Counted from the stretch's first letter, positions 10,103 through 32,286 are shown. The stretch is 64,000 nucleotides of DNA from Escherichia coli (GCF_044647545.1 NZ_CP172818.1); one strand, 5' to 3'. Numbers and translations: made by a program. The notes: a model not told the origin generated them from the sequence alone.

Positions 10103-12034
10103 ATGAGTTATCAGGTCTTAGCCCGAAAATGGCGCCCACAAACCTTTGCTGACGTCGTCGGCCAGGAACATGTGCTGACCGCACTGGCGAACGGCTTGTC
10201 GTTAGGGCGTATTCATCATGCTTATCTTTTTTCCGGTACCCGTGGCGTCGGAAAAACCTCTATCGCCCGACTGCTGGCGAAGGGGCTAAACTGCGAAACC
10301 GGCATTACCGCGACGCCGTGCGGCGTGTGCGATAACTGTCGTGAAATCGAGCAGGGGCGCTTTGTCGATCTGATTGAAATCGACGCCGCCTCGCGTACCA
10401 AAGTCGAAGATACCCGCGACCTGCTGGATAACGTCCAGTACGCTCCGGCGCGTGGTCGTTTCAAAGTTTATCTCATCGACGAAGTGCATATGCTGTCGCG
10501 TCACAGCTTTAACGCACTGTTAAAAACCCTTGAAGAGCCGCCAGAGCACGTTAAGTTTTTGCTGGCGACGACCGATCCACAGAAATTGCCGGTGACGATT
10601 TTGTCACGCTGTTTGCAATTTCATCTCAAGGCGCTGGATGTCGAGCAAATTCGCCATCAGCTTGAGCACATCCTCAACGAAGAACATATCGCTCACGAGC
10701 CGCGGGCGTTGCAATTACTGGCGCGCGCCGCTGAAGGCAGCCTGCGAGATGCCTTAAGTCTGACCGACCAGGCGATTGCCAGCGGTGACGGCCAGGTTTC
10801 AACCCAGGCGGTCAGTGCGATGCTGGGTACGCTTGACGACGATCAGGCGCTGTCGCTGGTTGAAGCGATGGTCGAGGCCAACGGCGAGCGCGTAATGGCG
10901 CTGATTAATGAAGCCGCTGCCCGTGGTATCGAGTGGGAAGCGTTGCTGGTGGAAATGCTCGGCCTGTTGCATCGTATTGCGATGGTACAACTTTCGCCTG
11001 CTGCACTTGGCAACGACATGGCCGCCATCGAGCTGCGGATGCGTGAACTGGCGCGCACCATACCGCCGACGGATATTCAGCTTTACTATCAGACGCTGTT
11101 GATTGGTCGCAAAGAATTACCGTATGCGCCGGACCGCCGTATGGGCGTTGAGATGACGCTTCTGCGCGCGCTGGCGTTCCATCCACGTATGCCGCTGCCT
11201 GAGCCAGAAGTGCCACGCCAGTCCTTTGCGCCCGTCGCGCCAACGGCAGTAATGACGCCAACCCAGGTGCCGCCGCAACCGCAATCAGCGCCGCAGCAGG
11301 CACCGACTGTACCGCTCCCGGAAACCACCAGCCAGGTGCTGGCGGCGCGCAAGCAGTTGCAGCGCGTGCAGGGAGCAACCAAAGCAAAAAAGAGTGAACC
11401 GGCAGCCGCTACCCGCGCGCGGCCGGTGAATAACGCTGCGCTGGAAAGACTGGCTTCGGTCACCGATCGCGTTCAGGCGCGCCCGGTGCCATCGGCGCTG
11501 GAAAAAGCGCCAGCCAAAAAAGAAGCGTATCGCTGGAAGGCGACCACTCCAGTGATGCAGCAAAAAGAAGTGGTCGCCACGCCGAAGGCGCTGAAAAAAG
11601 CGCTGGAACATGAAAAAACGCCGGAACTGGCGGCGAAGCTGGCGGCAGAAGCCATTGAGCGCGACCCGTGGGCGGCTCAGGTGAGTCAACTTTCGCTACC
11701 AAAACTGGTCGAACAGGTGGCGTTAAATGCCTGGAAAGAGGAGAGCGACAACGCAGTATGTCTGCATTTGCGCTCCTCTCAGCGGCATTTGAACAACCGC
11801 GGCGCACAGCAAAAACTGGCTGAAGCGTTGAGCACGTTAAAAGGTTCAACGGTTGAACTGACTATCGTTGAAGATGATAATCCCGCGGTGCGTACGCCGC
11901 TGGAATGGCGTCAGGCGATATACGAAGAAAAACTTGCGCAGGCGCGCGAGTCCATTATTGCGGATAATAATATTCAGACCCTGCGTCGATTCTTCGATGC
12001 GGAGCTGGATGAAGAAAGTATCCGCCCCATTTGA
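10103..12034 (+). CDS. dnaX: DNA polymerase III subunits tau (full length) and gamma (via -1 frameshift)
   Basis: 643-aa ORF MSYQVLARKWRPQTFADVVGQEHVL with Walker A GTRGVGKTS; recognised as DnaX. Confidence 0.97.
   Translation: MSYQVLARKWRPQTFADVVGQEHVLTALANGLSLGRIHHAYLFSGTRGVGKTSIARLLAKGLNCETGITATPCGVCDNCREIEQGRFVDLIEIDAASRTKVEDTRDLLDNVQYAPARGRFKVYLIDEVHMLSRHSFNALLKTLEEPPEHVKFLLATTDPQKLPVTILSRCLQFHLKALDVEQIRHQLEHILNEEHIAHEPRALQLLARAAEGSLRDALSLTDQAIASGDGQVSTQAVSAMLGTLDDDQALSLVEAMVEANGERVMALINEAAARGIEWEALLVEMLGLLHRIAMVQLSPAALGNDMAAIELRMRELARTIPPTDIQLYYQTLLIGRKELPYAPDRRMGVEMTLLRALAFHPRMPLPEPEVPRQSFAPVAPTAVMTPTQVPPQPQSAPQQAPTVPLPETTSQVLAARKQLQRVQGATKAKKSEPAAATRARPVNNAALERLASVTDRVQARPVPSALEKAPAKKEAYRWKATTPVMQQKEVVATPKALKKALEHEKTPELAAKLAAEAIERDPWAAQVSQLSLPKLVEQVALNAWKEESDNAVCLHLRSSQRHLNNRGAQQKLAEALSTLKGSTVELTIVEDDNPAVRTPLEWRQAIYEEKLAQARESIIADNNIQTLRRFFDAELDEESIRPI
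11386..11397 (+). other. dnaX: dnaX programmed -1 ribosomal frameshift site (A AAA AAG heptamer, then -1 frame GAG TGA ending gamma)
   Basis: Heptamer AAAAAAG at 11386..11392 in the correct phase (codons AAA AAG at 11387..11392), -1 frame stop TGA at 11395..11397, and a GC-rich hairpin CCGGCAGCC...GCGCGCGGCCGG starting about 6 nt downstream. Confidence 0.9.
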
Positions 12035-26759: not shown

Positions 26760-29264
26760 TTATTCCTTCGGTTTAAATCGCAGCAATCGGTTGGCGTTAC
26801 TCACTACGGTAATCGACGAGAGCGCCATTGCCGCTCCGGCAACCACCGGGTTAAGCAGCGTACCGGTGAACGGCCACAAAATACCGGCGGCGACCGGAAT
26901 ACCAATGCTGTTGTAGATAAACGCACCGAGCAGGTTCTGCTTCATATTGCGCAGCGTTGCGCGGGAAATCGCGAGCGCATCTGCAACACCCATCAGGCTA
27001 TGGCGCATCAGGGTAATCGCCGCGGTTTCAATGGCAACATCACTGCCGCCACCCATCGCAATACCGACATCCGCCTGAGCCAGCGCTGGCGCGTCGTTAA
27101 TGCCGTCGCCCACCATTGCCACCTGACGTCCTTCACTTTGCAGACGTTTGATCGCTTCGGCTTTACCGTCCGGTAGCACCCCGGCTATCACCTCATCAAT
27201 CCCTGCTTCTTTGGCGATCGCATTGGCGGTGGTTGGGTTATCCCCGGTTAGCATCACCAGACGATATCCCGCTTTATGCAGGCGTTGCAGCGCCGCCACG
27301 CTATCACTACGCAACGGATCGCGTACAGCCAGCAGGGCTACCGCTTTCCCGTCAACCGCCAGCAGCACAGGCGTTGCCCCTTGCGATGCCTGAGCTGAAA
27401 TATCTGCCTCAATCGCTTTAGTATCAACTTGCTGGTCATTTAACAGCGCCTGATTACCCAGCAATAACGCATGACCTTCAGCTTCACCGCTCACGCCCAG
27501 CCCGCGCAATGTGCGGAAACCGTTGACCTGCGGCAGCTGCATATCACCTGCTTTATCGAGGATCGCTCGTGCCAGCGGATGGCTGGAACCTTGCTCCAGT
27601 GCCGCCGCCAGACGCAATGCCTGCGCTTCATCAACATCAGCAAACGTTTTCACTGCGACAACCTGCGGCTTCCCTTCGGTCAGCGTCCCGGTTTTATCGA
27701 ACACGACGGTGTCGAGCGTACTGGCGCGTTGCAGCGCGTCAGCGTCCCGCACCAGCACGCCAAACTCAGCCGCCCGCCCGACGCCCGAAATAATCGACAT
27801 CGGCGTCGCCAGTCCCAGCGCACACGGACAGGCAATAATCAGCACCGTGGTGGCAATCACCAGGGTATAGACAATTTGCGGTGCCGGACCAAAGAAATAC
27901 CAGATTGCCGCACTGACAAGCGCAATAACCACTACTACCGGCACAAATACGGCTGAGATTTTATCCGCCAGTTGACCGATTTCTGGCTTGCTGCTCTGGG
28001 CCTGTCGCACCATGCGAATGATCCGTGACAGCGTAGTATGGCTGCCGACCGCACTGGCGCGAAACAGCACACTGCCGTCCTGTACCACTGTCCCGGCATG
28101 GACGCTATCGCCTTCGCCTTTTTGCTGCGGGATTGGTTCGCCCGTCAGCATCGCTTCATCCAGCCACGCTTCGCCCTGGGTAATTTCACCATCTACCGGC
28201 ACCCGATCACCCGTCGTCAGGCGCAGCAACATACCTGGCTGAACATCTGCCAGCGGCACGTTTTTTTCACCTTCGTTGGTGACCAGGCGCGCCGTCGGTG
28301 GGGTTAAATCGAGTAATTTCTCCAGCGCCTTAGAAGAACGCTGACGTGCGCGCGCTTCCAGCATATGACCGAGATTAATCAGACCGATAATCATCGCACT
28401 GGCTTCATAGTAAAGATGTCGCGCTTCCATCGGGAACCACTGCGGCCACAGGTTGACGCTCATTGAATAGAGCCACGCCACGCCCGTACCCAGCGCCACC
28501 AGCGTATCCATCGTCGCTGCACCGTTCAGCAGGCTTTTCCATGCGCTGCGGTAAAAATGGCCGCCGGCGAAAACCATTACCGCCAGGGTTATCAGGCCGA
28601 TAACCAACCACAGGCTGCGGTTGTCGGCGGTGACCATCATGTTATCGCCGATCATCCCCCAGACCATCACCGGGATACCCACCGCCAGTGCGACAATCGC
28701 CTGCCAGCGGAAGCGCTTCATCGTAGCGACGGCGGTTTCTTGCTGGCGCTCGCGGCGTTTAGCGTCATCTTCAATCGCTTCCGCGCCGTAGCCCGCTTTT
28801 TCCACCGCCTGCACTAAATCTTGTGGGGAGGCACTGCCCATCACCAGCGCAGTACGCTCCGCCAGGTTTACCCGTGCCTGAGTGACGCCCGGTACGCTTT
28901 GCAACGCATTTTGTACGCGGGTGACACAGCTGGCGCAGCTCATGCCGCTCAGCAGCAACTGCTGGCTGTCATCGTCATCGGCGGTCGCTGCCGGAAGCGC
29001 CTCAGAAACCGCTGTCAGTGCTTCCGACGGGATTGATGACTCCGCCAGCGGTTTAGCCTTTGGGTGGCTTACAGATGCGTCATAACCCGCTTGTTTGATG
29101 GTTTCGATCAGCTGTTCTGCACTGGCAGTCCCGGTAACGTGCGCTTCAGTGACAGACACATCCGCCTGCTCAACATCCGGGCGCTGTTCGAGACTTTCTT
29201 TCACGCGTTTAACGCAGTGACCGCAGGACAGGCCGTCCAGGGTCAGGTCGATAGTTTGTGACAT
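26760..29264 (-). CDS. copA: Cu(I)-exporting P1B-type ATPase CopA
   Basis: 834-aa ORF with two N-terminal GxxCxxC metal-binding domains (GLSCGHC, GMSCASC), CPC transmembrane motif and DKTGTLT phosphorylation site. Confidence 0.97.
29053..29064 (-). other. copA: copA programmed -1 frameshift site giving the CopA(Z) metallochaperone (slippery C CCA AAG, -1 frame GGC TAA)
   Basis: mRNA-sense CACCCAAAGGCTAAACCG at codons 67-72 of copA (plus-strand CTTTGGG at 29058..29064); -1 frame stop TAA lies immediately after the slip site. Confidence 0.75.
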
Positions 29265-29312
29265 AAAACACTCCTTTTAAGACAGTTTTGACTGGCTGTG
29301 ATAAAGGTTAAA

Positions 29313-29331
29313 CCTTCCAGCAAGGGGAAGG
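29313..29331 (-). promoter_or_regulatory. CueR (MerR-family) operator dyad within the copA promoter
   Basis: CCTTCC-N7-GGAAGG inverted repeat; on the copA strand it sits inside a 19-bp spacer following -35 TTGACC (reverse complement of 29331..29336), typical of MerR-type promoters. Confidence 0.85.
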
Positions 29332-29526
29332 TCAAGAAATTAATAAACCAGGCGGGTAAAAGTACGTAAAGATTAAAAAATCGGCTCGATTTGCATCAGG
29401 ATTAGACATTTATCTCTTTGTTTTCCTGTAGTTAAGTTGCGGGTGCTAAGTTAAATCAGGATGCCTGAAAATTGGCACCGGGGTGAGGAATTACCTCCCG
29501 CATCTATAAAAAGGAGTTAACAAAAG

Positions 29527-31878: not shown

Positions 31879-32286
31879 ATGAACATTAGCGATGTAGCAA
31901 AAATTACCGGCCTGACCAGCAAAGCCATTCGCTTCTATGAAGAGAAGGGGCTGGTGACGCCGCCGATGCGCAGCGAAAACGGTTATCGCACCTACACGCA
32001 GCAGCATCTCAACGAACTGACCTTACTGCGCCAGGCACGCCAGGTGGGCTTTAACCTGGAGGAGAGCGGCGAACTGGTGAATCTGTTTAACGATCCGCAG
32101 CGTCATAGTGCCGACGTCAAACGTCGTACGCTGGAGAAGGTGGCGGAGATCGAACGGCATATCGAAGAACTGCAATCCATGCGCAACCAGCTACTGGCGC
32201 TGGCGAATGCCTGCCCTGGCGATGACAGCGCCGACTGCCCGATTATCGAAAATCTCTCCGGCTGCTGTCATCATCGGGCGGGGTGA
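31879..32286 (+). CDS. cueR: Cu-responsive MerR-family activator CueR
   Basis: 135-aa [42 protein letters not shown] with C-terminal [10 protein letters not shown] metal site. Confidence 0.96.

Follow-up and report, generated by a model that had tools for sequence, protein, structure and literature searches.

The programmed -1 ribosomal frameshift cassette of Escherichia coli copA: sequence elements, conservation and pseudoknot covariation

Introduction

In Escherichia coli, the -1 frameshift in copA and the chaperone that arises from it were reported experimentally by Meydan et al. (2017, Mol Cell 65:207) and by Drees et al. (2017, Mol Microbiol 106:635). In copA of E. coli, the -1 shift is efficient and gives rise to a putative copper chaperone of 70 aa (PMC5009743), and the event is well supported by ribosome profiling and has been independently confirmed (PMC9548414). 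The frameshift is stimulated by the slippery sequence, a pseudoknot and the nascent chain (PMC7558416), and single-molecule assays have shown that ribosomes stall at the pseudoknot (PMC6182138). The shortened protein, CopA(Z), serves as a copper chaperone and protects cells from excess copper (PMC6771820); its role as a chaperone and in copper protection is likewise described elsewhere (PMC6747150). In the RefSeq record of K-12 MG1655, b0484 carries two CDS, one for the ATPase and a two-piece one for a 'soluble Cu(+) chaperone' (YP_009518752.1).

The other -1 frameshift gene known in E. coli, dnaX (tau/gamma), resembles copA in several respects, including a chromosomal -1 shift on an N_NNA_AAG-type heptamer read by tRNA-Lys, a downstream RNA structure, a near-immediate -1 stop and a shortened product. 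The two differ in that dnaX combines A_AAA_AAG with an upstream Shine-Dalgarno-like AGGGAG and a simple stem-loop, whereas copA combines C_CCA_AAG with a pseudoknot. Unlike in dnaX, no Shine-Dalgarno-like element was seen upstream of the copA site, for which a nascent-peptide effect has been reported instead (PMC7558416). Viral and insertion-sequence cassettes (IBV 1a/1b, IS3 family) share with copA the X_XXY_YYZ heptamer, the short spacer and the H-type pseudoknot; however, their shifts extend the protein into a long overlapping ORF, while the copA shift ends translation after one codon. With respect to the product, CopZ of Enterococcus hirae and Bacillus subtilis likewise consists of one HMA domain, ~70 aa long and with a CxxC motif, and has a CopA pump as its partner. 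CopZ is encoded by its own gene, whereas the copA chaperone is the pump's own first domain, freed by recoding.

Here, we describe the copA frameshift site of an E. coli genome (GCF_044647545.1, NZ_CP172818.1) in a window of 64,000 nt, which is the whole stretch of DNA analysed, following a sequence-only reading that had proposed it. The feature is the already published copA -1 frameshift site, annotated in the reference genome; it is real and not new. What is mildly new is limited to the comparative evidence for the pseudoknot and to the changed position of the cassette in orthologues with more domains.

Results

The copA locus and its identity with K-12

The window is a piece of E. coli chromosome and contains copA on the minus strand at 26760..29264. 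According to the ORF list and translation, it encodes a Cu(I)-exporting P1B-type ATPase with a zero-frame product of 834 aa, which matches NCBIfam NF007952 'copper-exporting P-type ATPase CopA' at 1747.6 bits (cut-off 1316). The gene order copA-glsA-ybaT-cueR is the one annotated in L001. The cueR gene, identified from the ORF list and the L001 annotation, lies on the plus strand at 31879..32286; its 135-aa product is of the MerR type and activates copA in response to Cu(I). The copA promoter, read from the sequence at 29305..29335 (minus strand), consists of TTGACC, a 19-nt spacer with the dyad ACCTTCC-N7-GGAAGGT, and TAACCT. This layout is of the MerR/CueR type, and we take the promoter to be controlled by CueR. 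It was not picked up by a generic sigma-70 scan because of its 19-nt spacer. The host gene is a CueR-regulated Cu(I) P1B-ATPase copA with N-terminal HMA domains and cueR nearby. The same window also holds dnaX, with A_AAA_AAG at 11386..11392 in a 643-aa ORF.

A 601-nt stretch around the frameshift site was found in 5422 of 5426 E. coli genomes, where the annotation was always copA, and is 100% identical to many complete E. coli genomes. In comparison with K-12 MG1655, the window shows no difference from gene nt 113 onward, across the heptamer, the -1 stop and both stems of the RNA structure. Three substitutions occur in the first 112 nt of copA, two of them synonymous and one exchanging Ile38 (K-12) for Val38 (window), and they leave the cassette untouched. 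YP_009518752.1, at 511168..511379 in MG1655 (212 nt), maps exactly onto 29053..29264 of the window. The locus, the 70-aa product length, the neighbours glsA/ybaT/cueR and the promoter are also shared with the K-12 system, and frameshifting on an identical sequence is on record from ribosome profiling and from biochemical work (PMC9548414, PMC5009743). The claim of the sequence-only reading that the site matches the reported CopA(Z) recoding event is therefore borne out by the identity of the cassette, by the joined CDS at equivalent coordinates and by the literature (PMC5009743).

Slippery heptamer, -1 stop and the 70-aa product

Around the site, the copA mRNA reads GUA AGC CAC CCA AAG GCU AAA CCG CUG. 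The slippery heptamer C_CCA_AAG (29058..29064, minus strand) spans codons 67-69 (H-P-K) and is placed at the end of the first metal-binding domain of CopA. The first C of CCCAAAG is the last base of codon 67 (gene nt 201, phase 2), which gives the heptamer the X_XXY_YYZ phase for a tandem -1 slip. After the slip, the -1 frame reads CCC AAA GGC UAA and translates as PKG*, with the UAA stop (29053..29055, minus strand) one codon (GGC, Gly70) past the slip. The CopA(Z) coding range at 29053..29264 (minus strand), the equivalent of the MG1655 joined CDS, hence comprises 69 zero-frame codons, the -1 shift, Gly and the stop, and the predicted short product consists of CopA residues 1-69 plus Gly (70 aa).

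These elements are as the sequence-only reading had described them. It had read C CCA AAG GCU AAA at codons 67-69, and the heptamer was confirmed at 29064..29058; it had called the heptamer present and in phase, with which the phase check agrees; it had derived CCC AAA GGC UAA from the slip, and the stop was located at 29055..29053; and it had expected termination just past the first metal-binding domain at about 70 aa, and the product indeed consists of 69 CopA residues plus Gly and amounts to one complete HMA domain. The interval 29040..29064 contains the heptamer, the -1 stop and the 5' arm of pseudoknot stem S1, and the full frameshift cassette extends to 28990. We take C_CCA_AAG to be the slippery site of copA, in agreement with the MG1655 annotation. 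The same heptamer is listed as highly shift-prone in E. coli (PMC5009743).

The 70-aa product matches the Pfam HMA family (PF00403) over profile positions 3-62 of 62 (E 8e-14) and includes GLSCGHC, the CxxC copper site. Its PDB matches include the CopZ chaperones 6ff2 and 1cpz, the 66-residue heavy-metal-binding protein 2roe, and metal-binding domains of Cu-ATPases. The short product is predicted from these matches to be a complete, soluble copper-binding HMA domain.

Chance expectation within the window

With 8 copies of CCCAAAG in the window and 8.7 +/- 2.9 in shuffles, the heptamer by itself shows no enrichment. Within ORFs of 150 aa or more, the window has 45 in-phase X_XXY_YYZ heptamers, only four of which end in AAAG, and a -1 stop follows within 3 codons in only two of these four, namely copA and dnaX. 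The heptamer/stop filter thus retains the two -1 frameshift genes known in E. coli and no others. The non-chance character of the copA site rests on conservation and not on motif count, and the comparative evidence is the decisive one.

Conservation among orthologues and within E. coli

Orthologue DNA was gathered by protein search and 12 contig look-ups; a scan of genome contigs with full-length CopA was dominated by the generic P-type ATPase motif MVGDGIND and gave three useful Enterobacterales loci. C_CCA_AAG was found in phase just past the first metal-binding domain in 12/12 two-domain orthologues ('PK' linker), ten of which had been picked after 'PK' was seen in the protein sequence. These orthologues came from Citrobacter, Enterobacter, Klebsiella, Cronobacter, Erwinia, Pantoea and six metagenomic or assembly contigs, and the 'PK' motif is present in every two-domain Enterobacterales N-terminus of the protein match list. 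Including multi-domain genes, the in-phase heptamer and a -1 URA stop at the same offset were found in 15/15 Enterobacterales orthologues, down to ~50% protein identity. The stop at this constant offset is UAA or UGA throughout, and the pattern in the twelve two-domain genes is CCC AAA GNC URA.

The nucleotides of the cassette are maintained where the encoded residues are not. Before Pro, the residues H, S, Y, L, P and F all occur across orthologues, yet the codon at this place always ends in C, and the zero-frame residues across the -1 stop vary among AK, AN, AD, PD, PE, SE, TK and TE. In a comparison of six genera, restricted to codon pairs sharing an amino acid, synonymous-codon identity was 274/295 (0.93) in codons 66-92 versus 393/744 (0.53) in codons 2-65; the pairs are non-independent, and the contrast is large. 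The conserved linker motifs (PK..PL, PEAL, LPA) could partly result from protein constraint.

Across E. coli genomes, an identity of 99% or more is reached by the 100 nt with the cassette in 5404/5422, by the 100 nt upstream of it in 2493/5422 and by the 100 nt downstream in 5371/5422. These population data are consistent with a conserved cassette but do not set it apart from the sequence that follows it. The most divergent E. coli sampled have their differences past the 3' end of the RNA structure. Beyond the Enterobacterales, 61 distant CopA loci, spanning other Gammaproteobacteria, Firmicutes and Chloroflexi, showed neither CCCAAAG at the homologous place nor a consistent alternative heptamer with a stop after the first domain. 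In the set of loci examined, the cassette is therefore confined to Enterobacterales-type genes.

A covarying pseudoknot downstream of the heptamer

An H-type pseudoknot is predicted downstream of the heptamer, with all arms on the minus strand and with stem coordinates predicted from the present sequences and not taken from the published drawing. Stem S1 is formed by the 5' arm AACCGCUGGCGG (29042..29053; RNAalifold, stem energies) and the 3' arm CUGACAGCGGUU (29007..29018; RNAalifold, pair counts), such that AACCGCUG(G)CGG (29053..29042) pairs with CUG(A)CAGCGGUU (29018..29007). The 5' arm of stem S2, GUCGGAAGC (29020..29028; RNAalifold 9-bp helix), lies inside the S1 loop, and its 3' arm, GCUUCCGGC (28990..28998; RNAalifold, compensatory variants), follows the 3' arm of S1. 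Measured from the heptamer, the conserved S1 core (CCGCUG) begins at a distance of 6 nt, as is usual for -1 frameshift stimulators. Nearest-neighbour energies, with each stem taken separately, are about -13 and -14 kcal/mol.

RNAalifold draws no pseudoknots, and the two stems were sought separately on natural, unedited gapless alignments. S2 was recovered as a 9-bp helix in ten species, and in the alignment without the S2 3' arm, S1 was recovered as 6+3 bp in 13 species, and 4/9 of its pairs showed compensatory changes. MAFFT applied to the whole cassette of 14 species misplaced the S2 3' arm where loop lengths differ, and a hand-anchored, loop-trimmed alignment of 15 species was used for this reason. 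In a joint count on that alignment, 89.3% of cells were paired versus 18-45% with partners slid by 1-3 columns, a pairing that is somewhat inflated because the structure was derived from the same sequences and because the alignment was anchored by hand with its loops trimmed. Nine of the 20 pseudoknot pairs are altered on both sides, and the observed covariation score was matched by 0/500 shuffles.

Compensatory variants are found in both stems. They include CCGUUG/CAACGG in Pantoea, ACGCUG/CAGCGU in Erwinia and CCACUG/..AGUGG in L090 for S1, and CCGGAAU/AUUCCGG in Yersinia, CCGGAAC/GUUCCGG in Photorhabdus and CUGGAA/UUCCAG in Proteus for S2. Several of these changes alter amino acids on both sides (e.g. 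E-A...L becomes E-Y...I in Yersinia), and such two-sided changes are hard to explain by protein constraint.

A single-sequence minimum free energy fold (z = -1.85) was set aside as a line of evidence; it cannot show a pseudoknot, and its long-range outer helix is absent from the ten-species consensus. A search of 28600..29500 with Rfam covariance models gave no match near the gathering score (best 15 bits, E above 2). Rfam 15 apparently lacks a copA frameshift family, and this null result thus says nothing against the element.

A relocated cassette in multi-domain orthologues

The CopA proteins of Yersinia, Photorhabdus and Proteus have three or four N-terminal metal-binding domains, and in these genes the cassette follows the second or third domain, always just before the last inter-domain linker. 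Where an Enterobacterales CopA lacks 'PK' after domain 1, it has additional domains, and 'PK[TS]EPL' follows its penultimate domain. In the three multi-domain orthologues, the heptamer takes the form C_CCA_AAA, the -1 stop is UGA at an unchanged offset, and both pseudoknot stems are retained, with compensatory changes. In the L087 lineage, a perfect 11-bp hairpin stands in place of the pseudoknot. If frameshifting occurs in Yersinia, Photorhabdus and Proteus, they might make tandem two- or three-HMA soluble chaperones of ~139 and 206 aa, a suggestion that we regard as tentative and somewhat doubtful.

Discussion

Mechanism

The site is almost certainly the programmed -1 ribosomal frameshift cassette of E. 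coli copA, producing CopA(Z) besides the pump. The statement of the sequence-only reading that copA encodes both the pump and a small copper chaperone holds, and is supported by the two copA CDS of MG1655, the conserved heptamer and stop, the suppression of synonymous change and the covarying pseudoknot. No sequence evidence against the frameshift reading was found.

We infer the mechanics at the level of the tRNAs as follows. In a ribosome at C_CCA_AAG, the P site would be occupied by tRNA-Pro paired with CCA and the A site by tRNA-Lys paired with AAG, while the downstream H-type pseudoknot, positioned at the mRNA entry channel, would hinder translocation. A fraction of ribosomes would then re-pair one base back, on CCC and AAA, in a tandem -1 slip. 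The slipped ribosomes would add one glycine (GGC), terminate at UAA and release CopA(Z), a 70-residue single HMA domain with CxxC that would act as a soluble CopZ-like Cu(I) chaperone, and the non-slipping ribosomes would make the 834-aa pump. Both products come from one CueR-controlled promoter, so their ratio would be fixed when copper rises. The elements in this scheme that can be read directly, that is, the sequence motifs, their phase and conservation, the covariation of the pseudoknot and the domain content of the product, are observations of the present work. The efficiency in vivo, the contribution of the nascent chain and the protection against copper are taken from the literature.

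Alternative explanations

All three alternatives considered are weak. The short protein could come mainly from a separate truncated transcript or from proteolysis of CopA, with the RNA structure serving termination, processing or stability, and a stable structure directly 3' of the short ORF fits such an origin. However, a transcript without a stop codon gives no defined product ending at Gly70, no intrinsic-terminator-like site was found on the copA strand from 28700 to 29264, and the conserved in-phase heptamer and -1 stop would be left without a role. The literature attributes the product to frameshifting (PMC9548414, PMC5009743, PMC6771820), and we consider this origin very improbable.

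It is extremely improbable that the frameshifting is non-adaptive noise yielding a functionless peptide, with the structure kept for a translational pause that helps CopA to fold during synthesis or to be targeted to the membrane. Such a pause behind the first domain might plausibly aid folding, but selection keeps the heptamer, stop and pseudoknot together even where the cassette has moved behind the second or third metal-binding domain. In addition, the product always consists of whole HMA domains, and a protective chaperone function has been reported (PMC6771820).

Finally, the idea that the heptamer is mere coding sequence of a conserved His-Pro-Lys linker, with a coincidental -1 stop and no recoding, agrees with the chance frequency of CCCAAAG in the window and with the conservation of the P-K residues and flanking linker motifs in the protein, yet deserves next to no credence: Pro-Lys has eight possible encodings and C followed by CCA AAG/AAA is used in 15/15 orthologues, the residue before Pro changes while its last base remains C, the -1 stop is retained under changing zero-frame residues, synonymous sites are frozen, compensatory changes alter amino acids on both sides (EY..I for EA..L in Yersinia), and the event is published and annotated, with a heptamer-dependent 70-aa product reported in the literature.

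Transcriptional slippage was also considered as a source of the frame change and rejected. Runs of three C or three A, as in the heptamer, are too short for it.

Significance

The routine PGAP annotation of one E. coli genome contains full-length copA only, whereas the curated MG1655 record lists the chaperone too, and the chaperone is presumably missing from most other routinely annotated E. coli genomes. Very few programmed -1 frameshift sites are known from bacterial chromosomes outside mobile elements, and the copA site is one of them. Its frozen synonymous sites, together with the covariation in both stems, provide independent evolutionary support for the pseudoknot. To our knowledge, E. 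coli has no copZ gene; the frameshift site explains the source of its copper chaperone and the fixed ratio of chaperone to pump.

Recoding signals elsewhere in the window and in copA

The window also carries dnaX (10103..12034, plus strand; 643 aa; NCBIfam NF005942, 982 bits), in which a slippery heptamer A_AAA_AAG at codon 429 (11386..11392, +) is preceded by an SD-like AGGGAG (11371..11376, +) and followed by an immediate UGA in the -1 frame and a GC-rich stem-loop at about 11399..11427 (+). These elements make up the classical dnaX -1 frameshift cassette. To our knowledge, copA and dnaX are the two known chromosomal -1 programmed frameshift genes of E. coli, and they lie less than 18 kb apart here. 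When E. coli genomes were searched with copA 5' segments, 2 of the 5423 matching places were on plasmids rather than chromosomes.

Besides C_CCA_AAG, copA contains a single in-phase X_XXY_YYZ heptamer, A_AAA_AAC at codon 334 (28260..28266, -), which is without sign of conservation or structure. The -1 extension from it spans 19 codons, and the heptamer is probably meaningless. Further afield, the distant CopA of Propionigenium maris has A_AAA_AAA at codon 61 of the match, exactly where the first HMA domain ends, with a -1 stop two codons further on. The genome is A-rich, and this arrangement may well be due to chance.

Annotation and assembly of copA

Only full-length copA is listed in the PGAP annotation of E. 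coli FDAARGOS_497, while the curated K-12 MG1655 record additionally lists a frameshifted 'soluble Cu(+) chaperone' CDS; with one routinely annotated genome checked, the frameshifted product is presumably missing from most such annotations. Further, copA has been called as two adjacent ORFs in several public assemblies (L083, L084, L085, L087, L089 and L090), the N-terminal one an HMA part 250-540 aa long and the C-terminal one the ATPase part, and fragments of this kind account for many of the database's N-terminal 'proteins'. The split ORFs could be assembly frameshifts or pseudogenes; their break points lie far downstream from the slippery site.

Variation and relocation of the cassette

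In one enterobacterial assembly, the copA orthologue (59% identity; L087:810-860) keeps C_CCA_AAG and the UGA and has a perfect 11-bp hairpin, CCGCUGUCAGC/GCUGACAGCGG, in place of the pseudoknot; S2 arms are absent from this segment.

The CopA orthologues of Yersinia kristensenii (L092:708), Photorhabdus caribbeanensis (L004:1911) and Proteus vulgaris (L093:909) have three or four HMA domains at the N-terminus, and the site is missing behind the first of these. C_CCA_AAA and a UGA at the same offset as in E. coli are found behind domain 2 or 3, together with the two-stem pseudoknot of E. coli copA, with compensatory changes. In every case, the relocated cassette lies ahead of the last linker, and the 'PK[TS]EPL' motif found there also occupies the corresponding place in Serratia and Providencia protein sequences. 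The heptamer, UGA and pseudoknot behind domain 2 or 3 predict that copA would yield tandem-HMA chaperones, of about 139 aa in Yersinia and Photorhabdus and about 206 aa in Proteus.
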